Shown piece after piece: positions 16,415 through 56,751 of a stretch of DNA of 64,000 nt. Positions within the stretch are counted from its first letter, which is position 1, and each line of letters opens with the position of its first letter. The position numbers and the translations under genes were made by a program. The notes beneath the pieces are model-generated. The model did no database searches. It saw nothing but the letters and a program-made list of their open reading frames with translations, and was not told the DNA's origin. Source of the stretch: an uncultured Actinomycetota bacterium (GTDB lineage: Bacteria; Actinomycetota; Actinomycetes; Prado026); NCBI GenBank assembly GCA_963849365.1, contig CAWKHA010000004.1:1570051-1634050 (forward strand). Direction: 5' to 3'.

Positions 16415-17092
16415 ATGACCGCTGTCGAACAGCTGCCCGACGAGCAGGCCATGGCCGGGGTCACCGACGTGACCGCACGCCGGATCGGCTTGCTGGGCGA
16501 CGACCACAACGAGCAAGAGGATGGCAGCGATCTGCCCGATGAGGTGCTCACCGCTTTCGACGGCGTGGATCTCATCGTCCATCTCGGGCACATGGGCTCT
16601 GGCGACGTCTTCGCAAGAGGTGTGCTCGATCGGCTTGCCAAGGTGGCCCCGGTTCTCGCGGTCCGCGACTACATGACCAACGGCGCGAAGCAGCTGGTCA
16701 TCACGCCGGCCGACGGCGAGCGCGTCGCCGGGCTGACACGGGTCATCAAGGCCGGTGGTGTCCGCATCGGCGCGTTGCACAATCCCGGCCGCGGTCCAGG
16801 TCCGGAGATCGAGACACCGCCGGGTGGCCTGCCCGAGCTGCACGGTGTGGCGGTCGGCGACGTCCTCGCCGCGAAGTTCGGGGGCCCGGTGGATGTGGTG
16901 GCCTACGCAGGCAGCCACCGGGCGGCGACGCTGCTTGCCGACGGCGTGCTGTTCGTCAATCCCGGCAGCCCGACCTACCCGAAGGGGCCGGGACGGGTCG
17001 CAGGGGAGTGGGCGCTCGGCACGGTGGGCATCCTCGACGTCGCCGACGGCGTCGCGGCGTTCGAGACGGTGGAGCTCTCGCTGCTCAGCTAG
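16415..17092 (+). CDS. YfcE/MJ0936-like metallophosphoesterase
   Basis: RIGLLGDDHN, DLIVHLGHMG, AYAGSHRA and LFVNPGSPTYP blocks. ATG 16415 follows GAAGGGAG. Confidence 0.65.
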   Translation: MTAVEQLPDEQAMAGVTDVTARRIGLLGDDHNEQEDGSDLPDEVLTAFDGVDLIVHLGHMGSGDVFARGVLDRLAKVAPVLAVRDYMTNGAKQLVITPADGERVAGLTRVIKAGGVRIGALHNPGRGPGPEIETPPGGLPELHGVAVGDVLAAKFGGPVDVVAYAGSHRAATLLADGVLFVNPGSPTYPKGPGRVAGEWALGTVGILDVADGVAAFETVELSLLS

Positions 17093-17862
17093 TCAGCTGC
17101 GCTCATCAGGCGATCGGTTTGCATCTGCTCAGGAGCCGGGGGATGGAGCCAGTCGGGGCCAGACGTTCCGAGATAGGCGTGGATGCCGAGGGTGTAGAGG
17201 TCGAAGACCGGTAGGTGGCTGGTCTCGCGCACCGTCTGGCTGAACGGCGCGAGGTTCGCGCACTCGAGCACGATGGCGCCGACCTCGGGGTGCTCGATGC
17301 ACATCTCGCGCGTGAGCTCCTCGAGTTCGGCATGGATCCGTGCCGGGTCGCACTCGGGCGCATCGCCGACGAAGGTCCGGGAAAAGTGGCTGTCCGGTCT
17401 GGGCGCCGCTTGCACGATCGGGATGTCGTCGGCTGACCAGCCGCAGCCTGTGAAGTGCAGCTCGTTCAGCACCGCGTTCGCGGTGATGATGCCCACCTTC
17501 TGGCCCGGCCTGATGCTCGCGGCGGCGAGCGGAACCTGCAACAGGGAAGACGCGAACACCGGGACGGAGACAGCGGCCGCGAGCTTCGGCTGGTGTGCAG
17601 CCAGAAACCCGCAGCTGGTGAGGATCGCGCGCACACCGTCGGCCTCGAGCTCGTGGACCGCGTCGATCATCGGTGCGAGCAGAGACGGGTCGGGCTCGCT
17701 GACGGCTAGACGCTCCGGGATGGCGCCTCGGACCACGCGATACAGCACCGGAAAGGGCCAGGTGCGTGCATTGCCGATGTCTCCGCGCAGTCGGGGGAAC
17801 TTCGTGTCCAACATGAGGACCCCGACGGGAAGCCCGTACAGGGTGTGCCCACCCCTCAGCAT
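17089..17862 (-). CDS. Asp/Glu/hydantoin racemase superfamily protein (paralog 2 of 3)
   Basis: MLRGGHTLYGLPVGVLMLDTKFPRLRGDIGNARTWPFPV aligns with paralog 1 from residue 1. TATCAT -10 (17874-17869, minus strand) places the transcription start on ATG 17862. ATG 17880 is an alternative start. Confidence 0.8.
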   Translation of the reverse strand: MLRGGHTLYGLPVGVLMLDTKFPRLRGDIGNARTWPFPVLYRVVRGAIPERLAVSEPDPSLLAPMIDAVHELEADGVRAILTSCGFLAAHQPKLAAAVSVPVFASSLLQVPLAAASIRPGQKVGIITANAVLNELHFTGCGWSADDIPIVQAAPRPDSHFSRTFVGDAPECDPARIHAELEELTREMCIEHPEVGAIVLECANLAPFSQTVRETSHLPVFDLYTLGIHAYLGTSGPDWLHPPAPEQMQTDRLMSAAD

Positions 17863-17881
17863 CGGGCCATGATAGACCATA

Positions 17882-17898
17882 GTATCGGAACACGATAT
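17882..17898. promoter_or_regulatory. RTATCG-N5-CGATAY box at the -35 position of the racemase-like gene 2 promoter
   Basis: GTATCG gaaca CGATAT. Confidence 0.65.
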
Positions 17899-17945
17899 AG
17901 CGACCTGACGTGTCGCGCGGGCGGCGCCAGCCCCGAGCGGGGGAA

Positions 17946-19250
17946 TCAGCCCAGCACCGTCATTGTCGACTCCGCGTTGGGGACTCGCTTGCGCGAGAAC
18001 TCCCCGAGGTTGATGACGTGACCGGTGTAGTCGCACTCGTACCGGAGCGGATCCACATCGTGGTCGTGCCCGGCCTCGACACCATCCACCAGCGTCGCGA
18101 TGAACCGGCCTGCGAGGGGCGCGTTCTTGAACTGATTGCCGCTGGTCCCCATGGCCACGTAGTAGCCGTCGAGATCGGCGCGGTCGTAGATCGGCGCCCA
18201 GTCGTCGGACACGTCGTACACGCCCGCTACCCCCGTCGGGCGGTCGGGCACGCCCAGCTCGGGCAACCGGCGTGCCAGGCGGGTGACCTGCACGCGGAAG
18301 CGTTCGGCCGTGGCCCGTGGGCTGGCCGCGTCCGGGTCATCCACCCACTCCAACGGATCGCACTCCGGTTCCGTGCCGCCGACGAGGAGGAAGCCGCCAG
18401 GTGCCGTTCGCCAGTAGATGCCGAGGTCCAGGTCCGCGACCACGATGGCCAGCTCGGCACCGTCACGACTGCGTGGGGCCGCGACCTGATGCACCTCCTG
18501 CCGCATGGGGCGAACGCCGACGGAGAACTCCGCGCCCACGCCGGCGAGCCGATTCAGACTCGTCGACCATGGGCCCGCCGCGTTGACCAGCACCGGGGCG
18601 TACACATGGGTTCCGTCCGCCAGGCGCACGCCGACAACTCGACCGCCCTGTTCCTCGACTCCGGTCACGTTCTGGTTGAAGAGGAACTCCACGCCGGCGC
18701 GTTGCCCGGCGAACGCCAGGTTCTGGGTCGCGAGCTGCGGGTCGCTGATGTACCCACCGTCTGGTGTGTAGATCGCGCCGAGCCGTTCCGTTGCGTCATC
18801 GGCGAAGGCCGCGTCGTCGACCCGTCTGGGCGGCCAGTACCTGCCGGTGTCGATCCCCGGGATCCGTGCCTGCAAGGTGTCGGCGTCCCACTGCTCGTAC
18901 GGCACGCCGACCTCGTCGAACAACGCGATCACGCGGTCACGGGGGAGGATAGGGACATCCAGCAGCGCGTAGCCGGTGCGGACGAACGTCGCGAGCTGCG
19001 CCTCGTCGCCGGACCGCACATGCTCCGGCCAGTTCGCCCAGTAGTGCTTCGACTCCCACGCGGTGGCCACGGCGTCGCGGGTGGGGTACTCGAACCGAAC
19101 GATGGCGCTCGACGCGCCCGTCGACCCCAGACCGGGTCCGCCGGCCTTGTCGACGACGATGACCGTGCGACCACGTCGGGCCAGCTCCAGCGCCGCGGAA
19201 CAGCCCATCACGCCGGCGCCCACGACGACCACGTCCGCGGAGCGTGACAT
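17946..19250 (-). CDS. DAO-family FAD-dependent oxidoreductase (sarcosine-oxidase-beta / D-amino-acid dehydrogenase-like)
   Basis: MSRSADVVVVGAGVMGCSAALELARRG dinucleotide fold sits right at ATG 19250. The 733-aa ORF-track extension upstream is antisense to the next gene. Confidence 0.85.
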   Translation of the reverse strand: MSRSADVVVVGAGVMGCSAALELARRGRTVIVVDKAGGPGLGSTGASSAIVRFEYPTRDAVATAWESKHYWANWPEHVRSGDEAQLATFVRTGYALLDVPILPRDRVIALFDEVGVPYEQWDADTLQARIPGIDTGRYWPPRRVDDAAFADDATERLGAIYTPDGGYISDPQLATQNLAFAGQRAGVEFLFNQNVTGVEEQGGRVVGVRLADGTHVYAPVLVNAAGPWSTSLNRLAGVGAEFSVGVRPMRQEVHQVAAPRSRDGAELAIVVADLDLGIYWRTAPGGFLLVGGTEPECDPLEWVDDPDAASPRATAERFRVQVTRLARRLPELGVPDRPTGVAGVYDVSDDWAPIYDRADLDGYYVAMGTSGNQFKNAPLAGRFIATLVDGVEAGHDHDVDPLRYECDYTGHVINLGEFSRKRVPNAESTMTVLG

Positions 19251-19340: not shown

Positions 19341-19370
19341 GTGACGTATTACGATATCTATAAACGATAT
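19341..19370. promoter_or_regulatory. RTATCG-N5-CGATAY boxes in the FAD oxidoreductase / dehydratase divergent region
   Basis: GTGACG tatta CGATAT (19341-19357, weak left half) and ATATCT ataaa CGATAT (19354-19370). Confidence 0.55.
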
Positions 19371-19395
19371 TGGATGCAAGGCACTGGAGCGGGTG

Positions 19396-20400
19396 ATGAC
19401 AGGCCTTTCAGCGCTGGCGCGCACGGTGGCGACGATGTCGGAGAACGTCGCTCCGAAGATCGCCCCGTACGTCGTCTGCACGCCGTTGGTGCATTTCGCC
19501 GCGGCGAGCCAGGCCTGCGACTCCACGCTGCTGGTCAAGAGCGAGCACCAGCAGTACACCGGGTCTTTCAAGCTGCGCGGAGCCCTATCGAAGATCCTCA
19601 GCCTGTCGGCGGAGGAGCGAAGCCGCGGAGTCGTGACGTCCTCGACCGGCAACCATGGTCTCGGGCTCGCGCAGGCCCTCGAGTCGCTCGGTGGCCGCGG
19701 CATCGTCTGCGTCCCTGAGGGTGCCTCGCCCGCGAAGCTCGCCGCCCTGTCCCGCTTCGACGTCGAGCTCAGGACCCTCGGCAAGGAGGCGGGCGAGACC
19801 GAGACCCTCGGGCGGAAGCTCGCCGATGACCTCGGCATAGTCTTCGTCAGCCCGTACAACGACCTCGACGTGATCGCCGGCCAGGGCACGGTAGGCCGGG
19901 AGATCGTCGCGCAGCTCGGCTCGAGCCCGCTCACCACCGTGGTCACGTCGGTCGGCGGCGGCGGGCTGATAGCGGGAGTAGCTGCCTCGGTGAAGGCGGC
20001 GCTGCCGACCGCCCGCGTCATTGGCGCCTCACCCGCGAACGACGCGGCCATGGCGGCTTCCGTCCGCGCTGGGAAGATCATCGAGATCGACGCGCTGTCC
20101 ACCATCAGCGACGGCACCGCCGGCGGTATCGAGCCCGGCTCGATCACCTACCCGCTGTGCGCCGAGCTCGTCGACGAATGGGTCCTCGTCAGCGAGCAAC
20201 AGATCTACGAGGCGCTGCGGCTGACCATCGACACCGAGCACCAGCTCATCGAGGGGGCCGCAGCGGTCGCCATCGCGGCCGCCATCGAGGCTGGCCGAGC
20301 ACACCCGAACCAGACCCTGGCAGTCGTCTCGTGCGGTGCGAACATCTCGACGTCGACGCTGCGGATCGCCCTAGGATCGGCCGAGAGGAGACCATCGTGA
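19396..20400 (+). CDS. PLP-dependent threonine/serine dehydratase family enzyme
   Basis: GSFKLRGA (PLP lysine), SSTGNHG and GGGGLIAG blocks. GTG 19393 is an alternative start. Confidence 0.85.
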   Translation: MTGLSALARTVATMSENVAPKIAPYVVCTPLVHFAAASQACDSTLLVKSEHQQYTGSFKLRGALSKILSLSAEERSRGVVTSSTGNHGLGLAQALESLGGRGIVCVPEGASPAKLAALSRFDVELRTLGKEAGETETLGRKLADDLGIVFVSPYNDLDVIAGQGTVGREIVAQLGSSPLTTVVTSVGGGGLIAGVAASVKAALPTARVIGASPANDAAMAASVRAGKIIEIDALSTISDGTAGGIEPGSITYPLCAELVDEWVLVSEQQIYEALRLTIDTEHQLIEGAAAVAIAAAIEAGRAHPNQTLAVVSCGANISTSTLRIALGSAERRPS

Positions 20401-20759
20401 CCTTCACGACTCTGCACAGTCCCGACGTCCCTCAACCGACGGGCGCCTACAGCCAAGGCCGGCGGATCGGGCCGTTCGTCCAGACCAGTGGCCAGGTCGC
20501 CAAGGACCTCGACCTGGACATCGAGGGCCAGACTGTCCAGGCACTGGAGCAGATCCAGGCACTGCTCACCCACGAGGGTCTGGGTTGGCCAGACGTGCTG
20601 ATGATTCGCGTCTTCCTCGCCGACGACGCGCTCTGGCACGGCATGGACGTGGCCTACCGTCGTGTCGTCGCGCAGCCGTACCCGCCGCGCACCACGGTCG
20701 GCGCCACCCTCGGACCGGACATGCTCGTCGAGATCGACGCGCTGGCGGTGATCGCGTGA
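20397..20759 (+). CDS. ridA: RidA/YjgF family reactive-imine deaminase
   Basis: PQPTGAYSQG...VQTSGQV...IRVFL...YPPRTTVGA...VEIDALAV. GTG 20397 follows GAGAGGAG and overlaps the upstream stop (GTGA). Confidence 0.85.
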   Translation: MTFTTLHSPDVPQPTGAYSQGRRIGPFVQTSGQVAKDLDLDIEGQTVQALEQIQALLTHEGLGWPDVLMIRVFLADDALWHGMDVAYRRVVAQPYPPRTTVGATLGPDMLVEIDALAVIA

Positions 20760-21766
20760 CCACCGGCGACCGATCGGTCTTCGACCAGCCACCTCGAGTG
20801 AACAGCGGCGGGCACGTCGGCCCGATCGACGCCTCGCTCGTCCCCCGTTTCGTCGGCGAAGCGACGTTCCTGCGCCTACCACGGCCAGGCGAGGTCGGCG
20901 ACATCGACATCGCCATTCTCGGGGTCCCCTTCGACTCCGGGGTCTCCTTCCGGCCCGGCGCGCGGTTCGGCCCGGCACACGTCCGGGAGTCGTCCAGGCT
21001 GATCCGGCCCTACAACCCCGCACTGGGCATCGAGCCGTTCGCCGTCGCCCAGGTCTGCGACGTGGGCGACCTGGCGGTCACGCCTTACTCCATCGACGAA
21101 GCGGTAGCCACCATCCAGGCGGGCGCACGGGAGCTGAGTGAGCGAGCCGCGCACCTGGTCGCGATCGGGGGTGACCACACGATCGCGCTCCCGCTGCTGC
21201 GCGATGTGCACCGCCGGCACGGACGCGTCGCGGTCGTGCACTTCGACGCGCACCTCGACACGTGGGACACCTACTTCGGCCAGCCGATCACCCACGGCAC
21301 GCTGTTCCGGCGTGCGGCAGAGGAGGGTCTGCTCGATCGGGACGGCTGCCTGCACATCGGGACCCGGGCATCGTTGTACGCCGCCTCCGACCTCACCGAC
21401 GACCGAAGCTTCGGCTTCGACATCATCTCGGCCGACGACCTGCAGGACCTCGGCACCCGAGCAACGGTCGAGCGGATGCGCGAACGGCTTCAGGACCGAC
21501 CCGTCTACGTGTCGGTCGACATCGACGTGCTGGAACCCGGGCTGGCGCCGGGCACCGGCACTCCCGAGCTCGGCGGCCTGCTCGGTCGCGAGCTACTCGG
21601 TCTGATCCGAGGTTTGGCCGGGCTGAACATCGTCGGGGGTGACGTCGTCGAGGTTGCCCCCGCCTACGACCACGCACAGATCACGGGGATCGCTGCGGCA
21701 CACGTTCTGTACGAACTCGTCTCCGCCATCGCGGTCACCCGCAGAATCAGGGGGAGCAGCTCGTGA
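20756..21766 (+). CDS. agmatinase/arginase-family ureohydrolase (guanidino-acid hydrolase candidate)
   Basis: Mn-site motifs GGDHTIALP, VHFDAHLDT and SVDIDVLEP. GTG 20756 overlaps the ridA stop (GTGA). Confidence 0.85.
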   Translation: MTTGDRSVFDQPPRVNSGGHVGPIDASLVPRFVGEATFLRLPRPGEVGDIDIAILGVPFDSGVSFRPGARFGPAHVRESSRLIRPYNPALGIEPFAVAQVCDVGDLAVTPYSIDEAVATIQAGARELSERAAHLVAIGGDHTIALPLLRDVHRRHGRVAVVHFDAHLDTWDTYFGQPITHGTLFRRAAEEGLLDRDGCLHIGTRASLYAASDLTDDRSFGFDIISADDLQDLGTRATVERMRERLQDRPVYVSVDIDVLEPGLAPGTGTPELGGLLGRELLGLIRGLAGLNIVGGDVVEVAPAYDHAQITGIAAAHVLYELVSAIAVTRRIRGSSS

Positions 21767-23367
21767 CCGCAGGCGTCCAGATCGAGACAGCGAGCAGCAA
21801 CGGAGGGGCCGCGGTCGTCCGTACTCTCCAGGCTCACGGCGTGCGCACCGTGTTCGGCATCCCCGGCACGCACAATCTCGAGATCTACCGCCACCTGGCC
21901 GAGTCGTCCATTCGAGTGGTCACCACTCGCCACGAGCAGGGCGCCGGTTACGCCGCCGACGGCTACGCGCAGGTCAGCCGTACCCCCGGCGTCGTCATCA
22001 CCACCACCGGTCCCGGCGCGCTGAACGCGGCCACTGCCGTCGCCACGTCGTATGCCGAGTCGCGACCGGTCCTGCTCATCTCCTCGGGTCTGCCCCTCGG
22101 CGCCAACGACCGTGACCTCGGCGGCCTGCACGACACCAAGGACATCCTTGGCGCAATGTCGTCCCTGACCGCCTGGAGCGTTCGCCCCGGGACGCCGGAG
22201 GAGGTCGTCGACGCGATCTCACAGGCGTTCACGCTGTTCGCCACCGAGCGACCCCGCCCGGTCTTCATCGAGATTCCGGTCGACGTCCTCGAGTCCGCCT
22301 GGAGCGGCTCGACGACCGCTCCGATCCGATACTCGGCCCGCAGCCTCGCCGATGACGCCGCATTGGCGCAGGCCGCAGCCTTGTTGAGCCGCAGCCGACG
22401 GCCGGCGATGGTCCTCGGCGGCGGTGCGATCGACGCAGCAGCAGAGATCCGCGATCTGGCCGAACGACTCGACACGGTCGTCGTCTCGACATGCAACGGC
22501 AAGGGAGTGGTATCGGAGACGCATCCGCTCAGCGCCGGGGCGTCGATCCGCCTGCGCGCGGTCCAGCGCTACCTCGAACACTGCGACGCGCTCCTCGTCA
22601 TCGGCAGCGAGCTCGGTGACGCCGACCTGTGGGGCGGACAGATCAGCAACCCACACGTGATCCGGATCGACATCGACCCCCGGCAGCTGCACAAGAACCT
22701 CCCGGCGACCGTGCCCCTGCTGGGTGACGCACGCGCCATCGTCGGCGAGCTGGTCAAACGCGTGAATCCCCGCTCGGTCGACACACGAGCGGCCGACGTC
22801 GCCGCCGTCCTTCGCGTGGCAGCAACCGAAGAGGCGCTGCTCGATGGACGCGACTGGGTCGAGATCAACAGTGCGCTGCGTGAGGCACTTCCCCAAGACA
22901 CGATCGTCGCCGGCGACTCGTCACAGGTCACCTACTTCGGAACCGCACACTTCTTCCCGACCGAGCTACCGGCGAGCCTGCTCTACATGCCCCGCAGCGC
23001 AACGCTCGGCTACGCGCTGCCCGCGGCGATCGGGGCGAAGCTGGCCGCCCCGCAGCGGCCGGTGGTCGCGCTGCTCGGTGACGGCGCGTTCATGTTCTCC
23101 GTACAGGAGCTGGTCACGGCTGTCGAGCAAGATCTCGGCATCGCGATCGTCGTGATCAACAACCGGGGGTACTGCGAGATCAAGCAGCAGCAGGCGCGGC
23201 GCGGAGTCGACCCGATCGGAGTCGACCTCTATGTGCCCAATCTCGCGGACCTCGCGCTGTCGTGCGGTGCGGCGGGCGTGACTGCGCGCGACCCTGACCA
23301 TGCCGCGAAGCTGACTGCCGCAGCGGTGAACGGGGCCGGCCCCACCCTTGTCGAGCTGATGGTCTGA
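21763..23367 (+). CDS. thiamine-diphosphate enzyme, acetolactate synthase large subunit / 2-oxoacid decarboxylase family
   Basis: FGIPGTHNL, HEQGAGYAADGYA and TPP motif LLGDGAFMFSVQELVTAVEQDLGIAIVVINN. GTG 21763 overlaps the upstream stop (GTGA). Confidence 0.85.
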   Translation: MTAGVQIETASSNGGAAVVRTLQAHGVRTVFGIPGTHNLEIYRHLAESSIRVVTTRHEQGAGYAADGYAQVSRTPGVVITTTGPGALNAATAVATSYAESRPVLLISSGLPLGANDRDLGGLHDTKDILGAMSSLTAWSVRPGTPEEVVDAISQAFTLFATERPRPVFIEIPVDVLESAWSGSTTAPIRYSARSLADDAALAQAAALLSRSRRPAMVLGGGAIDAAAEIRDLAERLDTVVVSTCNGKGVVSETHPLSAGASIRLRAVQRYLEHCDALLVIGSELGDADLWGGQISNPHVIRIDIDPRQLHKNLPATVPLLGDARAIVGELVKRVNPRSVDTRAADVAAVLRVAATEEALLDGRDWVEINSALREALPQDTIVAGDSSQVTYFGTAHFFPTELPASLLYMPRSATLGYALPAAIGAKLAAPQRPVVALLGDGAFMFSVQELVTAVEQDLGIAIVVINNRGYCEIKQQQARRGVDPIGVDLYVPNLADLALSCGAAGVTARDPDHAAKLTAAAVNGAGPTLVELMV

Positions 23368-23401: not shown

Positions 23402-24382
23402 TCAGTACCGGGCACCCGCAACGCGAGTGGCAAGTGGGTCTAGGTCAGAAAGATCATCTGCGTCGAGCCGGACGTCCAGTGATCCGACGTTCTCTTCGAG
23501 CCACTTCCTTCGCTTGGTGCCAGGTATCGGAACGACGGGGACCCCGAGCTCGGCGGACCTTCCGCGGACCCACGTCAGTGCGACTTGTGCCGGGGTCGCC
23601 CCCCGTCGAGCAGCCACCGCCGCTACCACTCGTGCGATGGCCTGGTTCGAATCGGCCGCAGGGCCGGTGAACCTCGGGGTTCCGGCCCTCATGTCGCCTG
23701 GTCGGATCGTCAGGGTGTCCAGCGATCCGGTCAGGAAGCCACGCCCGAGTGGCGCGAAGGGGACCAGCGCTACGCCCAGCTCACGGGCGGCTCGCAGCAC
23801 GGTGATCTCGGGGTCGCGCGTCCACAACGAGTACTCGCTCTGCACCGCCGCGATCGGGTGGACGGAGCTTGCTCGCCGTAGGAGCGCGTCGTCCACCTCC
23901 GACAGGCCCAGGTAGCGCACCTTGCCCTCGGCCACCAGGTCCGCCATGGCGCCGACGGTCTCCTCGATCTCGGCATCCTCAGCAGGACGGTGCAGGTAGT
24001 AGAGATCGATGTGCTCGACCCCGAGGCGCAGCAGCGAGCTCACGCAGGACTGCTTGACGTACGCCGGGCTCCCACGCACGCGACGACTCTCCCTCCCCTC
24101 GGACACGTCTATGCCGAACTTCGTCGCCAGCTGCACCTCATCACGTCGGCTCGCGATCGCACGGCCGACGAGCACCTCGTTGTGGCCGGCGCCGTAGACA
24201 TCCGCGGTGTCGAGGAACGTGATCCCCAAGTCCAGAGCGCGGTGGATGGTCTCGGTGGCCTCGTCCCAGTCGGAGGCTCCGTAGCCTTGGCTCATCCCCA
24301 TGCAGCCCAGACCCAACCCGGAGACGGCCAGTCCTCCGATGCTGACGGTCGGCACCGTCACGGGCGCTCGCCGGGAGGTCAT
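23402..24382 (-). CDS. aldo/keto reductase
   Basis: GLGCMGMS, FLDTADVYG and DLYYLHRP blocks. ATGA overlap with the upstream cyclodeaminase-like gene. Confidence 0.85.
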   Translation of the reverse strand: MTSRRAPVTVPTVSIGGLAVSGLGLGCMGMSQGYGASDWDEATETIHRALDLGITFLDTADVYGAGHNEVLVGRAIASRRDEVQLATKFGIDVSEGRESRRVRGSPAYVKQSCVSSLLRLGVEHIDLYYLHRPAEDAEIEETVGAMADLVAEGKVRYLGLSEVDDALLRRASSVHPIAAVQSEYSLWTRDPEITVLRAARELGVALVPFAPLGRGFLTGSLDTLTIRPGDMRAGTPRFTGPAADSNQAIARVVAAVAARRGATPAQVALTWVRGRSAELGVPVVPIPGTKRRKWLEENVGSLDVRLDADDLSDLDPLATRVAGARY

Positions 24383-25296
24383 CGGTACTCGCCTTGCATG
24401 ACAGCTGTGGCCACGACGAGATCCTGCCAGGCCATCCCCACGCTCTTGAACACCAGCGGTCGATCAGCGGGCAGCTCGACGGCGCCCAGCACGACATCGC
24501 GCATCGGCACCAGGTCTTTGCGATCCAGCACTCCCTCGTCGACAGCCAGGGCCACGTCGCCGGCCTCGCGCAGGGCAGTGCTGACATCCTCGACGATGAC
24601 ACATGCCCGGCCGACGAGGCGCGCATCCGGCTCGCGCGCGTCGGGCTCGTGCGAGCCGACGGCCACCACCACCGCGTCGTCGCGCAGGAGCTCGGTGTCG
24701 AACAGTGGCGACCGAGCTGACGTTGCGCAGACAACTACGTCGGCTGCGCGCAGCACCTCCTCCGCCTGCCGCGAGTCCAGGAGAACCGTGCCACGCGGGT
24801 CCTGGGGGTCGCGGACCACGAACGTGGCGTCATCCAGGGGTCGCACGGCAGCCAGGGCGGCCATGTGTCCGACGGCCTGAGGGCCGGCGCCGATCACCGC
24901 AACTCTCAGCGGCCGGTCCGTCAGGCGCCCGAGGATGGCCGCAACAGAGACCGCCGGGGTGCGCAGCGTTGTCAGCGCGGTCCCGTCGAGGATGGCTCGC
25001 AGCTGGAGGGTGTCGGCGTCGAACAGCAGGTAGGCAGCCTGGATGCGGGGTAGCCCCCGGCTCGGGTTTCCCGGGGCGACCGTAGCCACCTTGACGCCGA
25101 CCGCTGAGGGGGACCCTGAGGGCATGAGGAGGAACTGGCCGTGGTCCAGGTCTACCGGAACTCGGGCCGGATCGGCGGCAGGGTCGAGGCCGCTGCGCAA
25201 CGCGTCCGTGATGGCCGCCACCGCAGCGACTGGTCCAAGCCTCGCTACGGCGACAGCATCGACGTACCTCACGGCAGTGGACAGGGCCAGCATCAT
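24379..25296 (-). CDS. ornithine cyclodeaminase / mu-crystallin family (imine reductase-type) protein
   Basis: KVATVAPGNP, LTTLRTPAVS and RVAVIGAGPQA blocks. TATGGT -10 (25310-25305, minus strand) places the transcription start at GTG 25299 / ATG 25296, a leaderless layout. Confidence 0.8.
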   Translation of the reverse strand: MMLALSTAVRYVDAVAVARLGPVAAVAAITDALRSGLDPAADPARVPVDLDHGQFLLMPSGSPSAVGVKVATVAPGNPSRGLPRIQAAYLLFDADTLQLRAILDGTALTTLRTPAVSVAAILGRLTDRPLRVAVIGAGPQAVGHMAALAAVRPLDDATFVVRDPQDPRGTVLLDSRQAEEVLRAADVVVCATSARSPLFDTELLRDDAVVVAVGSHEPDAREPDARLVGRACVIVEDVSTALREAGDVALAVDEGVLDRKDLVPMRDVVLGAVELPADRPLVFKSVGMAWQDLVVATAVMQGEYR

Positions 25297-25411: not shown

Positions 25412-26527
25412 ATGGGTGTGGAGTCGTACGACGTCCTCGTCGTCGGCGGCGGGATGGCCGGTGTCTCGATCGGGTTCGAGCTCGCGGCAGACCGGAGCGT
25501 CCTGGTCGCGGACATGGAACGCACGCTCGCGTTCCACACCACCGGGCGGTCTGCCGCGATGCTGCAGCAGTGCTACGGAAGCCCGACGATCCGCATGCTG
25601 ACGGCTGCGAGTCGCAGCTACCTGGAGGACCCGCCCTGGGAGCAACAGCTGCTGTCGCCGATGCCGATGCTGTACATCGGCCGGGCCGGCCGTGGCGACG
25701 CCGTCGCCGAGCTCTATCGGGAGGTCCAGCCGCTTGTCCCGGAAGTGGCGCTGCTCGATGCCGCCGAAGCTGTTGCGCTGCAGCCGTTGTTGCGACCGGG
25801 CAGCGTGGATCTGGCGCTGGTCGAGCCGCACGCGATGACGATCGACGTGCACGCCCTGCACCAGGGCTACGTCCAGGGCCTGCGCGCCCGCGGGAGCGCG
25901 ACCATGGTCGACGCACAGGTCTGCTCGGCCTCACGGGACGTTGAGGGGTGGACGGTGCAGCTGACTGGCGGCCGCACGGTCCGGGTCGAGCTGGTCGTGA
26001 ACGCGGCTGGCGCCTGGGCCGACCGGCTTGCCGAGCGTTGCGCAGTCCCGGCGGTCGGGCTGCGCCCCCTTCGCCGCAGCGTCTTCATGGTCGACGCACC
26101 GGCTGGCGCGGCCGCGCCGATGATCGACGACATCGACGAAGCCTTCTACGTTAAGCCAGAGGCCGGCGGATTGCTCTGCTCGCCCGAGGACAAGACGCCG
26201 CAGGACCCCGGGGACCCTCGACCCGACGAGCTGGAGATCGCGCGCGCGATCGAGGTGATCAACGAAGTCACCACGCTCGATGTGCGGCACATCCGGTCAG
26301 CGTGGGCGGGACTGCGCAACTTCGTCGCCGACGGCGAGCCGGTCGTCGGGTTCGACCCGACAGTCGAGGGGTTCTTCTGGTTCGCCGGCCAGGGCGGGTA
26401 CGGGATCATGACGGCACCGGCGCTGGCCCGGATGGGCGCTGCCCTGGTCCGCCGTGAGCCGGTCCCTGCCGACCTCACCCAGCGGGGCCTGACCGACTGG
26501 GAGCTGGCGCCCAGCCGATTCGGGTGA
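25412..26527 (+). CDS. DAO-family FAD-dependent oxidoreductase
   Basis: YDVLVVGGGMAGVSIGFELA dinucleotide fold and HTTGRSAAM. RBS GAGGAG. Confidence 0.85.
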   Translation: MGVESYDVLVVGGGMAGVSIGFELAADRSVLVADMERTLAFHTTGRSAAMLQQCYGSPTIRMLTAASRSYLEDPPWEQQLLSPMPMLYIGRAGRGDAVAELYREVQPLVPEVALLDAAEAVALQPLLRPGSVDLALVEPHAMTIDVHALHQGYVQGLRARGSATMVDAQVCSASRDVEGWTVQLTGGRTVRVELVVNAAGAWADRLAERCAVPAVGLRPLRRSVFMVDAPAGAAAPMIDDIDEAFYVKPEAGGLLCSPEDKTPQDPGDPRPDELEIARAIEVINEVTTLDVRHIRSAWAGLRNFVADGEPVVGFDPTVEGFFWFAGQGGYGIMTAPALARMGAALVRREPVPADLTQRGLTDWELAPSRFG

Positions 26528-26626: not shown

Positions 26627-28666
26627 GTGAGCGTCGCGTTCGAAGACGTGTCGGTCGTCCCGATGGACGCCGAGCACGTCGTCCATGGCCAGACCGTCGT
26701 CGTCGAGGACGACCGGATCACCTGGGTCGGACCCGCCACGGACGCGCATGTCCCAGCCGGAGCCCAGCGCATCGATGGGAGCGGGAAGTTCCTGATGCCG
26801 GGGTTGGCGGACATGCACTGCCACCCGTGTGACGAAGACGACCTGCTGCTGCTGGTGGCGCACGGCGTCACGACCATCCGCAACCTGGAGGGCATGCCGC
26901 GCCATGTGCTCTGGCGGGAGCGCGTCGCCTCGGGCCAGATGCTGGGCCCGACGATCTACACGTCCGGTCCGATCGTGGACGGTCGGCCGGTCCGCGGCTT
27001 CGGCAGTCTGTCGGTCGTCACCGCAGAGGAGGCGGTCGCGGCGATCGAGCAGACCAAGCGCGGCGGGTACGACTGCGTCAAGGTCTACGACCAGCTGTCC
27101 CCCGAGGCGTACGGCTGGGTCGTGGCGGCAGCCCGGGAGCGCGATCTGCCGGTGGTGGGGCACATCCCGTTCCAGGTCGGGCTCTACGAGATCCTCTCCA
27201 GTGGTCAGCGCTCGATCGAGCACCTCTACGGCTACCCGCAGGCGCTGCAACCACAGTCGCGAGCGGTCGAAGCGCCGCACGACCTCGGACAGCTGCGCAA
27301 GGGACTGTTCGACATGGCTCAGCACGCGGAGCTGGGACGCCTCCCGGAACTCGCGGCTCAGACGCGGGAGGCGGGCACGTGGAACTGCGCGACGCTGATC
27401 GTCCGTGGCCGGTGGCTGGCCGGACCGGCTGCGCTGTCCGCGCTGCCTGAGCTGGCGTACCTGTCGCCGTTGCGTGCGGCCCAGGCCCGGGACTTCTTCC
27501 ATCACTACCCGACCGAACCGGAGCGCTTCGCGGTGCCGGAGTTCAACGCGGCTGTCCTGCGCGGCCTGAACGAGGCCGGCGCGGGGGTGCTGGTCGGGAC
27601 CGACGCAGGCGTCCCGGGCTTCGTGTACGGCGCGTCCGAGCACGAAGAGCTGCGGGCGTTCGTGGAGGCCGGCCTCAGCCCCTACGAGGCGCTCCGCGCC
27701 GCGACGACCGCTCCGGCCGAGTTCCTCGGCCAGCCCGGCCAGTGGGGACAGGTCGTCGCCGGCGCCCGTGCGGACCTGGTGCTGCTGGACGCCGACCCGA
27801 TCGCCGACATCGCGAGCACAACGCGCCGCAGCGGCGTCATGGTCCGCGGGCGATGGCTGCCGCAGACGGAGATCGACCTCCTGCTGGCCGACCTCGCGGC
27901 GCGGCGCCGCGAACCCATGGCCTACCGCACGCGCTCAGGGAGCGCACCGGCCGTGCCGAAGGGCAGCGAGGAGCTGCAGTTCGACGTGACCTGGGCCGGT
28001 TTCGCCGTCGGCGAGGAGCACATCGCCGACGAGCAGAACGCACAGGGAGATCGTCGTGTCGTGGCGACGTCGTCCATCGACGGACTGGGCACGGCCCTGG
28101 GTTCGGAGGCCGGCACGTACCGGGCACAGGTGAGCGTGGACTCGGCCGGGGTCGACCAGTCCGCCTGGTTCGAGTTCGACGGCGACGACGGTACGGACCG
28201 GGTCGAGATCACGCGCGTGAACGGGTCGGTGCACGTCCGGCACAGCCAGGCCACCCACGACGAAGAGGTGACTGTCGCCGACCCGGACGCGACCGCCGTG
28301 TTCGGCCGTCCCTTGACCGCCCTGTACCTGCGGCTTGCCGAGCGGCTCGCCGGGCTCGAGGTTGGCGACCAGGTCGACGTGCCCGTCATCGCGCCCGGGA
28401 TCTCGCCGGACCTGACCGTCATGGCGTCGAGCATGCACGCGAAGCGGCTGCCCGCCGCCGGCTCCGACGACCCTGGTCCGCGCTATCTCCTGGAGTTCCA
28501 GCGGCCGAACTGGTCCGCGGTCGCCCGGCTCACCTGCGACGTCGCGAACCGGCCCGTCCGCATCGAGATGAGCACGGACCTGACCTACTGGCACAACAAC
28601 TCCGCCGACAGCCTGCCCGACGACGAGTCCATCGTGCGTGTCACCCGGGTCGCAGCCGCGCGCTAG
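26627..28666 (+). CDS. metal-dependent amidohydrolase with about 250-aa C-terminal domain of unknown function
   Basis: GLADMHCHP (HxH), VKVYDQ, VVGHIP, LVGTDAG and ADLVLLDADP blocks in residues 1-420. Residues from about 425 on match no family I recognise. GTG 26627 follows AGGAGG. Confidence 0.8.
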   Translation: MSVAFEDVSVVPMDAEHVVHGQTVVVEDDRITWVGPATDAHVPAGAQRIDGSGKFLMPGLADMHCHPCDEDDLLLLVAHGVTTIRNLEGMPRHVLWRERVASGQMLGPTIYTSGPIVDGRPVRGFGSLSVVTAEEAVAAIEQTKRGGYDCVKVYDQLSPEAYGWVVAAARERDLPVVGHIPFQVGLYEILSSGQRSIEHLYGYPQALQPQSRAVEAPHDLGQLRKGLFDMAQHAELGRLPELAAQTREAGTWNCATLIVRGRWLAGPAALSALPELAYLSPLRAAQARDFFHHYPTEPERFAVPEFNAAVLRGLNEAGAGVLVGTDAGVPGFVYGASEHEELRAFVEAGLSPYEALRAATTAPAEFLGQPGQWGQVVAGARADLVLLDADPIADIASTTRRSGVMVRGRWLPQTEIDLLLADLAARRREPMAYRTRSGSAPAVPKGSEELQFDVTWAGFAVGEEHIADEQNAQGDRRVVATSSIDGLGTALGSEAGTYRAQVSVDSAGVDQSAWFEFDGDDGTDRVEITRVNGSVHVRHSQATHDEEVTVADPDATAVFGRPLTALYLRLAERLAGLEVGDQVDVPVIAPGISPDLTVMASSMHAKRLPAAGSDDPGPRYLLEFQRPNWSAVARLTCDVANRPVRIEMSTDLTYWHNNSADSLPDDESIVRVTRVAAAR

Positions 28667-28683
28667 CCGCCAGGTCGAGTCCG

Positions 28684-29925
28684 TTGATCCAGCGCTACCG
28701 CACGCTCTTCCGCGCGCCCGGCGCCGCGGCGTTCTGCTGCGCGTCGTTCGTGCAGCGCATGCCGGTCGCGATGTACCCGCTCGGGATCATCCTGATCATC
28801 GCTGCACGCGACGGTCGGTACGGCTTCGCGGGCGTGCTGAGCGCGCTCTACCTCCTCGGCAACGCGGCAGGCAGCCCGGTGCTAGCCGGACTGGCCGACC
28901 GGCACGGACAGCGGCGGGTGCTGCTGCCGGGTGCTGCGGTGCATGCAGCCGGTGTCGCGACGTTCGCGGTCCTGCTGAGCAACGACGTGCCGGACTGGCT
29001 GCTCGCTGTCCCCGTCGTGGTGTTCGGCTTCAGCTACGTCTCGGTGGCCTCGCTCGTCCGGGCGCGCTGGGTGTTCGTGCTGCACGGCGCACCGGGTCTG
29101 GCCACAGCGCTCTCGCTGGAGTCCGTGCTGGACGAGGTCGTCTGGATCGTCGGGCCGCTGGTCGCGACGGTGCTGGTGACGGACGGTGCGTCGCTGTTCA
29201 TCCTCGCCGTCGGAGTCGTCCTCGTCGTCACCGGATCCATCGGCTTGGCCTCCCTGCGCGGCACCGCACCGCGGCCGCCCCCGCGCGACAGTGCCGCGCG
29301 CGCCTCCGCGCTGCGCACCCGCGGCATGGCTCGGATCACGCTGGCGACCGCCGGGGTGGGGGGAGTGTTCGCCAGCTCCGAGGTGGCGATGGTGGCGTTC
29401 TGCGCTCAGCACGGGCAGCGCGCGCTGAGCGGCGTGGTGCTCGCGCTGGCAGCCGCCGGTAGCGCCGTGGCGGGTCTCCTGTACGGCGCCGTCGACTGGC
29501 GCACCGACGTGCTGGACCGATACCGGGTGCACGCGGTGACGTTCGCCGTGCTGCCAGCCATGCTCTTCGCCGCAGCGAACGTGCCGGCGCTGGCCGTGGC
29601 CAGCTTCGTCCTGGGCCTGGGCACCGCACCGGCGCTCATCACGACGTTCGGCCTGGTCCAGCAGATCGTCCCTGCCCGCTCACTCACCGAGGGACTGGCC
29701 TGGGCCAACGCCGGGATCAAGGTCGGCTACGCCCCCGGCGCGGCGCTCGCCGGCATCGTCGCCGACCAGCACGGCGCCCGGGCCGCGTTCCTCGTTACAG
29801 TCGTGGCGTCCGTCTTCGTGGCGCTGTTCGCCCTTTCCGTCCGCGTGCGCCGTGACCCGGGACCGCCGTCCCACCATCCACTGGATGGGGTAGTCCGGGT
29901 CGGTCAGCGCCGGGCGCTCGGGTGA
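28684..29925 (+). CDS. MFS transporter (start uncertain)
   Basis: About 12 hydrophobic spans, LADRHGQRRVLL loop motif. TTG 28684 is the first start after the upstream stop. The last ~20 codons read antisense through the oxidase stump at 29865-29988. Confidence 0.7.
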   Translation: MIQRYRTLFRAPGAAAFCCASFVQRMPVAMYPLGIILIIAARDGRYGFAGVLSALYLLGNAAGSPVLAGLADRHGQRRVLLPGAAVHAAGVATFAVLLSNDVPDWLLAVPVVVFGFSYVSVASLVRARWVFVLHGAPGLATALSLESVLDEVVWIVGPLVATVLVTDGASLFILAVGVVLVVTGSIGLASLRGTAPRPPPRDSAARASALRTRGMARITLATAGVGGVFASSEVAMVAFCAQHGQRALSGVVLALAAAGSAVAGLLYGAVDWRTDVLDRYRVHAVTFAVLPAMLFAAANVPALAVASFVLGLGTAPALITTFGLVQQIVPARSLTEGLAWANAGIKVGYAPGAALAGIVADQHGARAAFLVTVVASVFVALFALSVRVRRDPGPPSHHPLDGVVRVGQRRALG

Positions 29926-29988
29926 GAAGGACTGGACCCACTCTGTGCGCGGTCGTGCTGTCCCAGTGCCATCGCGGCCAGCAGTCGG
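29865..29988 (-). pseudogene. 3' stump of a sarcosine-oxidase-like gene (near-identical copy of 35181-35305)
   Basis: About 94% nucleotide identity by eye to the 3' end of the gene at 35185-36390, with a 1-nt deletion. Translates LLAAMALGQHDR then out of frame. Confidence 0.65.
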
Positions 29989-30000
29989 TCGTTAGCACGG

Positions 30001-30029
30001 TTGACGATATCGCCAAGTGAGAGCAGACT
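30001..30029 (+). promoter_or_regulatory. sigma70-like promoter with embedded CGATATCG core (copy of 37187-37215)
   Basis: TTGACG (30001-30006), a 17-nt spacer containing CGATATCG, then CAGACT (30024-29). 29991-30030 matches 37177-37216. Confidence 0.55.
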
Positions 30030-30061
30030 GGAGTCCCATCCCTCGGCGAAAGCGTGGCGGC

Positions 30062-30217
30062 ATGACCAGTGCTCACACGTGCAGCCGCTGCGGGAACCCC
30101 CGGCTGATCATGCAGCTGAGCTTCGACCCGGTGCCGCGGGTGCGCACCGAGTGCCGGGAGTGCGGCACCGTCACGACCGGCTTCACGGTGCACGATCTGG
30201 CCGAGGACGCCCAGTGA
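30062..30217 (+). CDS. small zinc-ribbon / rubredoxin-knuckle-like protein (51 aa)
   Basis: MTSAHTCSRCGNP...TECRECGTV has two CxxCG knuckles. The N-terminal half recurs after the Rieske gene (38418: MAAERTCRHCGNP...TECR). RBS is weak. Confidence 0.4.
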   Translation: MTSAHTCSRCGNPRLIMQLSFDPVPRVRTECRECGTVTTGFTVHDLAEDAQ

Positions 30218-30255
30218 CCGCCTAGCTGTGCCCTGAGGATTGCGGTTGGGCTCGG

Positions 30256-31404
30256 CTATCGCCGTCGACCCGACTCACGCGCTGCCATCGCCTCGCGCAC
30301 CCGCCGCCTGGCCAGGTCGCGCCCGGCGGCATGCGTCGTGCTCCCGTCCGCCTCGGCCTTCGTCAGCACCTGGACGGTGTTGGCGGCGATCCGCCGCTCC
30401 ACGTCAGCCAGCAGCTCGTCCCGCTGCACCGGGAAGCCGGTCCGTCTGCTGCGGATCTCGTACGCGGCCGCGATCACGCCGCCGGCGTTGGCGATCAGGT
30501 CGGGGACGACGGTGACGCCGCGGGAGGACAGCAGACTGATCGCGTCCTCCGTGCAGGGCAGGTTCGCCCCCTCGACAAGGACCCTGGCTGCGATGGACGC
30601 GGCTTCCGCGGCCCCGATGACGTCCTGGGTCGCGGCAGGGATCAGGACGTCGCAGTCCAGTCGCAGCTGCGCGTCGGGAGCCACCGGGGTCGCCCCGCTG
30701 GCGGTGGCGAGGCACCCGTCGCCCATCTCCTCGCGCGCCTCGAGCGGTCCGGGGACGTCGAGCCCGTCCTCGTCCAGGATGGCGCCGTCAGCGGTGGACA
30801 CCGAGATGATCGAGGCACCGAGCCGGTGCAGTCTCGCGGCGGTCGCTGCGCCGACGGCGCCGAAGCCCTGGACGACTACCCGAGCTCCGTCGACGGCCAG
30901 GCCGGCGAAGGCCATCGCCTGGATCGCTGACGCGGCGACTCCGTGACCGGTCACGCCCCAGGCGTCGTACGGGACTCCGCCGAGGGCGCTCGGACCCCCG
31001 GTCGCAGCGTCCACCGTCCCCAGCTCGTCCTGCAGGATCGCCGCGTCGACCTCGGTCAGGCCCACGTCGAGACCGAACATGTACTCACGAGGGACCTCGC
31101 TGGCGAGAGCCCGTGCGAACCGTCGCAGCGCGAGCTCCTTGTCGGCGCACTTCGGGTCGAACCGCAGACCGGCTTTGGCGCCGCCGAACCGAAGATCAGC
31201 TGCCGCCCACTTCCACGTCATGACGCGAGCCAGCCGAGCGACCTCGTTGATCGTCAGGGACGGTCGCATCCGCGTGCCGCCCTTGCCGGGTCCGCGGGAC
31301 GTGTTGTCGATGACGAGCGCTCCTTGCATGCCGAGCGCCTCGTCGCGCACGAGGACCACCTTCTCCGGGCCCCACTCGTCGGCCGTGCAGATCTCGTCGA
31401 TCAT
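30256..31404 (-). CDS. Glu/Leu/Phe/Val amino-acid dehydrogenase family
   Basis: GPGKGGTRM, RFGGAKAGL (catalytic Lys region) and VVVQGFGAVGAATA. ATG 31404 follows GGAG. The 836-aa ORF-track extension is rejected. Confidence 0.85.
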   Translation of the reverse strand: MIDEICTADEWGPEKVVLVRDEALGMQGALVIDNTSRGPGKGGTRMRPSLTINEVARLARVMTWKWAAADLRFGGAKAGLRFDPKCADKELALRRFARALASEVPREYMFGLDVGLTEVDAAILQDELGTVDAATGGPSALGGVPYDAWGVTGHGVAASAIQAMAFAGLAVDGARVVVQGFGAVGAATAARLHRLGASIISVSTADGAILDEDGLDVPGPLEAREEMGDGCLATASGATPVAPDAQLRLDCDVLIPAATQDVIGAAEAASIAARVLVEGANLPCTEDAISLLSSRGVTVVPDLIANAGGVIAAAYEIRSRRTGFPVQRDELLADVERRIAANTVQVLTKAEADGSTTHAAGRDLARRRVREAMAARESGRRR

Positions 31405-31449
31405 TCGACTCCAGCCCTCGCCTAGCCCGGCGGTCGTCGACAGAGTACA

Positions 31450-31466
31450 ATATCGGCTACTGATAT
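31450..31466. promoter_or_regulatory. RTATCG-N5-CGATAY box in the amino-acid dehydrogenase / SnoaL divergent region
   Basis: ATATCG gctac TGATAT. Confidence 0.65.
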
Positions 31467-31488
31467 CGTTAGCCTTCGAGGAGGACGG

Positions 31489-37168: not shown

Positions 37169-37186
37169 CGGGGCAGGTTAGCACGG

Positions 37187-56710: not shown

Positions 56711-56751
56711 AGGACGGCCAACCCTTCGTCTCTTCATCGAATCGTAAACCG

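Follow-up and report, generated by a model that had tools for sequence, protein, structure and literature searches.

A conserved actinobacterial dehydratase-Rid-ureohydrolase-decarboxylase operon that may encode a variant of the 2-ketoarginine route

The 64-kb stretch of contig CAWKHA010000004.1 analysed here (uncultured Actinomycetota bacterium, assembly GCA_963849365.1; hereafter "the window") carries a chain of four genes for a dehydratase-like enzyme (DEH), a Rid-family protein (Rid), a ureohydrolase (UREO), and a thiamine diphosphate (ThDP)-dependent enzyme (TPP). The genes, and the operator boxes ahead of them, are as follows:

19393-20400, forward strand: fold-type II pyridoxal phosphate (PLP) serine/threonine-dehydratase-like enzyme, DEH, 334-335 aa (start GTG at 19393 or ATG at 19396)
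20397-20759, forward strand: divergent Rid-family imine/enamine deaminase, Rid, 120 aa (Ribonuc_L-PSP domain; catalytic Arg R98 in YPPRTTV)
20756-21766, forward strand: arginase-family ureohydrolase of the guanidino-acid hydrolase branch, UREO, 336 aa (metal-ligand motifs complete; clade-specific signature)
21763-23367, forward strand: ThDP-dependent 2-oxo-acid decarboxylase of the AruI (5-guanidino-2-oxopentanoate decarboxylase) clade, TPP, 534 aa
19354-19370 (one mismatch) and 19341-19357 (two mismatches), no strand assigned: operator boxes of the form RTATCG-N5-CGATAY in the divergent promoter region upstream of DEH

All three junctions are overlaps of a GTG start with a TGA stop (GTGA; 20397-20400, 20756-20759, and 21763-21766), exactly as a preliminary description of this DNA had reported, and a GGAG motif lies 5-8 nt ahead of the DEH start. 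This is the sole run of successive 4-nt overlaps in the window, where most other same-strand neighbours are spaced by 10-110 nt, and neither a promoter-like site nor a credible terminator was found inside the four-gene chain. The metagenome contig L189 has the identical gene order with the junctions ATGA, GTGA, and GTGA. Because L189 keeps the four genes with their 4-nt overlaps, DEH-Rid-UREO-TPP is a genuine and conserved operon. Overlaps of 4 nt are commonplace in high-G+C operons; they indicate co-expression, from which a common substrate does not necessarily follow. Among sequencing runs, no RNA data set was listed as containing the operon and DNA data sets contained just small fractions of its sequence words, which speaks neither for nor against expression.

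The ThDP enzyme contains all three ThDP domains N, M, and C (PF02776, PF00205, and PF02775). Of 52 models its best was NF005712, the AruI subfamily, with 461.8 bits versus 297 bits for the biosynthetic acetolactate synthase (ALS) model, and the genome's own IlvB is encoded elsewhere (NF005860, 1042 bits). In a maximum-likelihood tree, the ThDP enzymes of the window and L189 fall inside a clade with 100/99 support, apart from the IlvB clade (100/100). Also in their clade are four ureohydrolase-adjacent decarboxylases (L011, L157, L158, and L173), one of which (L011, 514 bits) scores above the AruI cut-off, and four relatives with no ureohydrolase found alongside. Judged by hidden Markov model scores, scores against solved structures, and this tree with its member above the AruI cut-off, TPP most plausibly encodes an AruI-like enzyme and not an acetolactate synthase. 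Pairs of ureohydrolase and ThDP genes recur (L011, L157, L158, L173, and L185) with transporter and aldehyde dehydrogenase (ALDH) genes nearby. At six loci round the best ThDP matches in five class-level relatives (G009, G013, G029, G034, and G038), such a pair occurs in G034 and G038, and a dehydratase or Rid gene adjoins in none. The unpublished genomes G017 and G039 underlie none of the conclusions.

In UREO, the motifs GGDH, DAHxD, and DxD are present, and their residues H141, D164, H166, D168, D255, and D257, the binuclear-metal ligands, align with those of GbuA, GpuA, and proclavaminate amidinohydrolase (PAH). Against solved structures the protein scored 270 bits with the guanidinobutyrase GbuA of P. 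aeruginosa, 244 bits with the guanidinopropionase GpuA, and 236 bits with PAH, versus 191-210 bits with agmatinases and 164 bits with the guanidine-hydrolase type. Of two agmatinase models it passes TIGR01230 (214.3 bits, cut-off 174.3) and stays below the cut-off of NF002564 (292.6 bits, cut-off 302); no arginine decarboxylase gene was seen adjoining UREO. On these scores UREO appears nearer to the guanidino-acid hydrolases GbuA, GpuA, and PAH than to SpeB. The AruI-like and GbuA-like identities proposed in the preliminary description are thus borne out by sequence comparison, which did not return the pairing of an ALS-like ThDP enzyme with a SpeB-like hydrolase that it had named as speaking against them. 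The genome's second ureohydrolase (38% identical) is encoded in the region G000:C1:676000-702000 among at least four aldehyde dehydrogenase genes; this region probably serves a separate polyamine or guanidino catabolism and could supply the ALDH step for which the operon has no gene.

The R98 of Rid aligns with the P-A-R arginine of five solved homologs and is equivalent to Arg105 of RidA; the active-site arginine of Rid proteins is the determinant of their deaminase activity (PMC5619798). The protein scored 52.9 bits against TIGR00004 (RidA), under the cut-off of 106, and at most 47 bits against solved RidA homologs. Iminoarginine released by DauA is hydrolysed by Rid2 and Rid3, not by RidA or Rid1 (PMC5619798), and the match of Rid to the Rid2 protein PSPTO_0102 is weak (30.8 bits only). 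Its family is narrow, with 52 homologs, and the neighbours of this family are a ureohydrolase, a ThDP enzyme, or both. In L194, for example, the gene of a 60%-identical Rid stands after those of an amino-acid ABC transporter and an M20 peptidase and immediately before a ThDP gene of the window type, and a 56%-identical Rid of Streptomyces goshikiensis (L193:4583-8381) lies beside an arginase-family gene that overlaps a class I/II aminotransferase gene. Rid is a hub whose partners (flavoenzyme, amidohydrolase or peptidase, dehydratase, ureohydrolase, and decarboxylase) reassort. The S. goshikiensis cluster also contains FemAB-like, HpaB, methyltransferase, ATP-grasp, PanD, and Asp/Glu-racemase genes; it looks biosynthetic and may encode an arginine-derived natural product.

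Further genes of the window that may bear on the same chemistry are:

17946-19250, reverse strand: DAO-family flavin adenine dinucleotide (FAD) oxidoreductase of 434 aa (DAO434), divergent from the operon
24379-25296, reverse strand: ornithine-cyclodeaminase/mu-crystallin-family imine reductase-like protein (OCD-like)
25412-26527, forward strand: DauA-type FAD D-amino-acid dehydrogenase, 2 kb downstream of the operon and divergent from the OCD-like gene
44743-46218, reverse strand: KGSADH-like aldehyde dehydrogenase, the window's only ALDH

The DauA homolog scored 288 bits against the P. aeruginosa D-arginine dehydrogenase DauA (residues 7-370; next match 63 bits), and all five main-chain ligands of DauA (Y53, R222, Y249, R305, and G332) are aligned. 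DAO434 has weak matches to solved structures, and its Atlas clusters are labelled only with the generic "FAD-dependent oxidoreductase". The OCD-like protein best matches Pyr2C/Pip2C (pyrroline-/piperideine-2-carboxylate) and ketimine reductases, all under curated cut-offs; DauB belongs to the same ornithine-cyclodeaminase/mu-crystallin family. The Pseudomonas D-arginine/2-ketoarginine route uses five enzyme families, and four of them (those of DauA, DauB, AruI, and GbuA) are represented here within 7 kb.

The interpretation that we prefer, with a probability of about 0.5, is that the operon forms the trunk of a catabolic module for an arginine-type (guanidino) amino acid. It would be a variant of the known route from DauA or AruH via AruI and KauB to GbuA, since it appears to be built round a 5-guanidino-2-oxopentanoate (2-ketoarginine)-type intermediate; all substrates named here are predicted from homology. 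In the proposed sequence of steps, an imine or enamine would be formed by a neighbouring flavoenzyme (the DauA-type dehydrogenase or DAO434), by the operon's PLP β-eliminase, or by both, and Rid would hydrolyse it to a 2-oxo acid of the 5-guanidino-2-oxopentanoate type. The AruI-type enzyme would decarboxylate this acid to a guanidino aldehyde, which would be oxidised by an ALDH encoded elsewhere before UREO releases urea. Should the classical route operate, the KGSADH-like ALDH would be a candidate enzyme for turning the aldehyde into the acid. Like DauB, the OCD-like reductase could convert the imine or the 2-oxo acid back into an L-amino or imino acid. Through the PadR-type operator at 19354, the operon would be co-regulated with the rest of the surrounding genomic island.

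In the preliminary description, the 2-oxo acid had to come from the dehydratase. This part of the proposal is not supported. The DauA homolog and its imine-reductase-like partner 2 kb downstream offer a flavoenzyme entry, DAO434 is co-linear with the operon in the related contigs L029 and L195, and Rid proteins hydrolyse the iminoarginine of DauA (PMC5619798). Together with Rid, the DauA homolog and DAO434 provide the textbook flavoenzyme route to the 2-oxo acid.

The conversion of 2-ketoarginine via 4-guanidinobutyrate to GABA and urea is an established route (PMC2242806). The locus resembles the DauA-DauB and AruH-AruI-KauB-GbuA systems of P. aeruginosa in its enzyme families, and its Rid would fit the documented acceleration of iminoarginine hydrolysis (PMC5619798). 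Unlike in the Pseudomonas route, however, decarboxylase and ureohydrolase share one operon with a Rid protein and a PLP dehydratase, whereas an aminotransferase and an adjacent KauB-type ALDH are lacking; the DauA homolog is without Glu87, the UREO signature has diverged, TPP scores below the AruI cut-off, and control is predicted to be exerted through a PadR-type box and not by DauR, ArgR, or GbuR. In the arginine oxidase/dehydrogenase pathway of cyanobacteria and P. putida (PMC2242806), a flavoenzyme likewise makes 2-ketoarginine and a guanidinobutyrase-type ureohydrolase frees urea. That pathway, however, has no Rid and no PLP dehydratase, and it needs no ThDP decarboxylase, as a peroxide-driven decarboxylation is possible. 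Enzyme families and core chemistry are thus known. A literature search found no description of a single coupled operon for a dehydratase, a Rid protein, a ureohydrolase, and an AruI-like enzyme, of a dedicated narrow Rid family, or of a diverged Rid-linked ureohydrolase.

The gene content of relatives was tabulated for contigs with a dehydratase at least 75% identical or a ureohydrolase at least 84% identical (L numbers, JGI-19972, and P0138 are contig or locus labels):

Window and L189: DEH-Rid-UREO-TPP; upstream of these in L189 are also an MFS gene and a further ureohydrolase gene
L195: DAO434-DEH-Rid-UREO-TPP, co-linear; UREO and TPP in frameshifted pieces, TPP just 45-55% identical
JGI-19972: two 680-aa amidohydrolases, MFS, Rid, split PALP, Rid, UREO, TPP
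L022: DapB-like and DauA-like genes, divergent from DEH-Rid-UREO
L029: DAO434-DEH-Rid, then the contig end
L020: 39-aa DAO434 remnant, then a solitary DEH
L190-192: DauA-like gene upstream (L191 and L192), DEH, 34-aa Rid remnant, UREO, two boxes, PadR
L021: DEH-UREO
P0138 contig: amidohydrolase-Rid-UREO, without a dehydratase

DEH and UREO are linked, directly or via Rid, in seven contig types (L189, L022, L021, L190-192, L195, and JGI-19972), and an eighth type, L029, ends after Rid. The flanks of the module differ in every relative, while the operator box recurs. In L021 and L022 no TPP gene was found; the contigs of L190-192 end too near to tell. No link in the clade is better conserved than the adjacency of DEH and UREO, and the tie of the dehydratase to the ureohydrolase that the preliminary description had drawn from one locus is thereby strengthened. 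Traces of decay are visible in several places. The first 34 codons of Rid persist between DEH and UREO (L190:939-1040 and L191:2475-2576), and the last 39 codons of DAO434 persist upstream of the otherwise solitary DEH of L020 (9863-9976). The UREO and ThDP genes at L195:10408-12854 and L194:8438-9844 are broken into 3-4 frame-shifted pieces, which may be assembly indels or real pseudogenes; one of these two contigs is labelled with 3.3x coverage.

Several observations weigh against the route proposed above. TPP stays under the AruI cut-off of 500 bits with its 461.8 bits, as does its L189 ortholog (459.9). In the DauA homolog, Glu87, which in the PaDADH structures binds the guanidinium of D-arginine, is replaced by Met, and H48M and V242D are further changes. 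No ALDH gene adjoins the operon, the nearest in the window being 21 kb away, and NCBIfam and solved structures gave Rid no subfamily placement. The UREO clade has ten fixed changes (F65, V103, R157, Q176, A205, E260, G262, L276, G277, and G295) at sites with 86-100% conservation among 81 homologs, which are typical guanidinobutyrase-type relatives and include ones paired with AruI-like enzymes. In L189, a second ureohydrolase gene (1905-2903; 57% identical) lies directly upstream of DEH and after the MFS gene. Because this second enzyme, which agrees with typical ureohydrolases at nine of the ten signature positions and whose gene has an operator box ahead of it at 1747, is part of the same operon, the operon-type UREO may not be a guanidinobutyrase. 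Finally, the proposed route gives the dehydratase no necessary role, though its adjacency to UREO is so well conserved. As a separate observation on the DauA homolog, Asp stands in place of both Val242 and Ser243, and the side-chain pocket appears to carry its negative charge elsewhere, hinting at a different (shorter?) cationic D-amino acid.

The two kinds of ureohydrolase in one L189 operon, together with the ten changes, suggest that the operon-type UREO takes a guanidino substrate different from that of typical enzymes. A205 and E260 replace an invariant Gly and Asp, E260 within the DxDxxDP motif. L276-G277 stands where typical enzymes have T/S-S and resembles the L-L-S of PAH at that place; PAH accepts a bulky substrate. 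For UREO as for DEH, the nearness of clade-specific residues to the active site is read from motif register only, and by that register Q176 would fall in entrance loop A, as defined for the agmatinase of E. coli (PMC8125230). UREO homologs with 59-70% identity are usually encoded in a module with an XRE-cupin regulator and an NCS1 permease; others adjoin AruI-like enzymes, with transporters and ALDH besides. These actinobacterial guanidinobutyrase-type modules (with NCS1 or SSF permease) are like the operon in their ureohydrolases and, in part, their AruI-like decarboxylases, but they have no Rid or dehydratase, keep the typical residues at the ten positions, and use another regulator.

Such features would be explained if the trunk of the pathway ran from Rid directly to UREO, with the ThDP enzyme as an optional branch. 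UREO would then hydrolyse 2-ketoarginine, or D-arginine as a D-arginase, to urea and 5-amino-2-oxopentanoate or D-ornithine; these would be cyclised or oxidised to Δ1-pyrroline-2-carboxylate, from which the OCD-like (in L022, DapB-like) reductase would make L-proline. The position of Rid, or its remnant, directly before the operon-type UREO in the window, L189, L022, L195, L190-192, JGI-19972, and P0138 fits this scheme, as do the lack of any Rid homolog in relaxed tblastn searches of 80 loci anchored on other ureohydrolases and the want of a ThDP gene in L021 and L022. Also in keeping with it are the fixed UREO differences with Q176 and the PAH-like L276-G277, the separate typical-signature ureohydrolase of L189, the Pyr2C/Pip2C-type matches of the OCD-like protein, the DapB-like reductase that follows the DauA-like gene in L022, and a DauA-like pocket without the guanidinium-binding Glu. 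However, an AruI-type decarboxylase is translationally coupled to UREO in both the window and L189, the UREO signature is placed by motif register only, and the matches of the OCD-like protein all lie below curated cut-offs. Moreover, we know of no precedent for a 2-ketoarginine amidinohydrolase. Overall, this scheme is distinctly unlikely.

The other enzyme with an uncertain part in the preferred route is the dehydratase. DEH has the PLP lysine K60 within SFKLRG, the asparagine loop SSTGNHG, and the tetraglycine loop GGGG, and matches the domain PF00291 (PALP) with 224 bits. Its best model is NF005292, "threonine/serine dehydratase" (342 bits, under the cut-off of 371), followed by the EutB models NF005680 and TIGR02991 (250 and 233 bits, under the cut-off of 413); its closest solved structures are TdcB (180 bits) and the Thermus threonine deaminase (179 bits). 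Among its homologs at 80 genome loci (52-77% identity), only the closest (L029, 77%) adjoins DAO434 and Rid. At the other 79 loci (52-71%) the gene is solitary, with no Rid, ureohydrolase, or ThDP gene nearby; its neighbours are purine genes in Nocardioides and, in Kribbella, a siderophore-type ABC transporter with TldD/PmbA, or glyQS. A tree of the family places the operon-linked dehydratases in a shallow clade within the stand-alone Nocardioidaceae homologs, from which a short stem (0.05) sets it off. Clade-specific residues occur at nine positions, of which two lie in active-site motifs (an A-to-L change directly after K60, and S83 of the asparagine loop), with no obvious gain of guanidinium binding and no acidic residue gained in recognised pocket motifs.

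DEH is also the sole threonine-dehydratase (IlvA/TdcB-type) homolog in the 97.6%-complete genome (E ≤ 1e-10), and no homolog was found in two same-genus genomes that are 89% and 82% complete (E ≤ 1e-20); nor was the TPP gene found in these two. Because it is the genome's only homolog, has no match in the same-genus genomes, and belongs to a shallow clade, DEH came with the module, and it looks like a recently recruited and little-changed member of an otherwise solitary family and not like a specialised enzyme. This runs counter to the special substrate that had been assigned to it in the preliminary description. Most class-level relatives possess an IlvA-like gene of 410-500 aa; the genus may obtain 2-oxobutyrate via another route or be auxotrophic for isoleucine.

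The same data bear on a model in which the PLP enzyme is the committed entry, eliminating water or a ring nitrogen from the β-position of a β-substituted guanidino amino acid (3-hydroxyarginine or capreomycidine-type). Rid would quench the resulting enamine/imine to 2-ketoarginine, and the AruI-like and GbuA-like enzymes would complete the route. This chemistry is coherent, as the best match of each downstream enzyme suits a C5 guanidino 2-oxo acid. The dehydratase gene is first in the operon and translationally coupled, two of the nine clade-specific substitutions fall in active-site motifs, and its adjacency to UREO outlasts the loss of Rid (L190-192) and the absence of the ThDP gene (L021 and L022) between unrelated flanks. 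Yet the homologs of DEH at 79 loci are solitary in surroundings of housekeeping type, the short-stemmed clade of operon-linked copies has gained no acidic pocket residue, and the P0138 contig combines Rid and UREO without a dehydratase. A search of the genome for a TauD/VioC-type arginine β-hydroxylase gave no match, and the literature search revealed no dehydratase-linked guanidino pathway. The lack of a hydroxylase match would be compatible with a hydroxylated compound taken from outside the cell; a β-hydroxy or cyclic guanidino amino acid is a possible substrate for which we have no positive evidence. As a whole, a committed PLP entry seems unlikely.

Doubtful to a similar degree is a three-part pathway for an arginine analogue that combines elements of both schemes. 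It would consist of a PLP ammonia-lyase for a β-substituted guanidino amino acid, a Rid-coupled UREO of new specificity that turns the 2-ketoarginine-type product into urea and pyrroline-2-carboxylate, and an imine reductase that converts the latter to proline, with the AruI-type decarboxylase as a parallel exit.

Alternatively, the operon may be a functional mosaic in which DEH and Rid deaminate L- or D-serine or threonine in the manner of TdcB-TdcF, while UREO and TPP handle arginine-derived compounds, the promoter being shared merely since the whole island is one amino-acid-catabolic regulon. DEH indeed has all canonical Ser/Thr-dehydratase motifs and ordinary relatives, parts of the module reassort freely among relatives, and five or more DAO genes occur in the island along with two racemase-like genes and some 30 operator boxes. 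As in the TdcB-TdcF and IlvA-RidA systems, a fold-type II PLP dehydratase gene is directly followed by that of a Rid protein with the catalytic Arg. Here, however, Rid is far from RidA by its TIGR00004 score, and its relatives accompany arginase-family and ThDP genes, not dehydratases. Moreover, DEH keeps adjoining UREO where all other genes differ, even after the decay of Rid, and as the genome's only threonine-dehydratase homolog, not found in the same-genus genomes, it came with the module. Such a division of labour is thus improbable, more so than the schemes above.

A purely housekeeping role, in which a threonine dehydratase and an acetolactate synthase would serve to make isoleucine and valine, and an agmatinase to make putrescine, is hardly credible. 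UREO passes TIGR01230 and the genome has no other threonine dehydratase homolog, but a bona fide IlvB exists elsewhere in the genome and TPP falls in the AruI clade. UREO resembles GbuA, GpuA, and PAH more closely than it does SpeB, the DEH and ThDP genes were not found in the same-genus genomes, and neither a small ALS subunit nor an arginine decarboxylase gene is adjacent. DEH was also considered as the housekeeping IlvA and rejected in this function, as it is without a regulatory domain, is located in an accessory island, and was not found in the same-genus genomes.

The box upstream of DEH is part of a larger regulon. The motif ACGATAT occurs 15 times in the window versus 1.6 expected copies, and similar boxes are found ahead of DEH in L191 and L192, ahead of the units in L189, and ahead of the PadR gene in L190. 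The window encodes one candidate regulator:

56291-56737, reverse strand: PadR-family regulator, candidate repressor of the RTATCG-N5-CGATAY boxes

In L190 (2178-2718), a PadR gene with two operator boxes directly follows UREO, which supports PadR as the regulator of this box regulon and suggests that the DEH-Rid-UREO module is close to its core. The module also provides a way to approach the effector of a 60-kb catabolic island under PadR control.

If the variant 2-ketoarginine route is indeed encoded, soil actinobacteria would have repackaged the Pseudomonas-type pathway into one translationally coupled operon with a dedicated Rid protein. This would be a natural genomic case for Rid proteins serving flavoenzyme-made iminoarginine, a proposal that has so far been supported in vitro only. 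The diverged Rid-linked UREO clade and the recruited DEH are, in addition, concrete cases in which new specificities could be sought by assay; both belong to large, poorly annotated families, and enzymes of these kinds are routinely mislabelled as "agmatinase" and "threonine dehydratase".

The remaining neighbours of the operon are:

17089-17865, reverse strand: Asp/Glu-racemase-superfamily protein, EutA-like (NF005679 264.5 bits, cut-off 231), with its own operator box
23402-24382, reverse strand: aldo/keto reductase, convergent with TPP and overlapping the OCD-like gene by 4 nt
26627-28666, forward strand: 679-aa amidohydrolase

The 679-aa amidohydrolase may free the amino acid from an amide; two 680-aa copies adjoin the Rid-UREO-TPP module in JGI-19972. 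Between its gene and a SnoaL-like gene lie about 2.8 kb (28667-31488) with no convincing long ORF by codon-position G+C. DauA-like genes recur near the module in relatives, divergent from DEH-Rid-UREO in L022 (73% identical) and upstream in L191 and L192, and DAO434 lies directly upstream of DEH in L029 and L195. With the racemase-like protein, which passes NF005679, the threonine-dehydratase-like DEH, and the OCD-like protein within 8 kb, the locus also recalls the EutA/EutB/EutC triad of hydroxyectoine degradation. However, DEH and the OCD-like protein are not orthologs of EutB (250 bits, cut-off 413) and EutC (57 bits, cut-off 472), and ectoine hydrolase or deacetylase genes were not seen nearby. 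The arrangement of a racemase-superfamily gene adjoining a DAO-family oxidase occurs twice in the island, at 17089-19250 and at 35185-37177, and the oxidase of the second pair passes the N-methyltryptophan-oxidase model.

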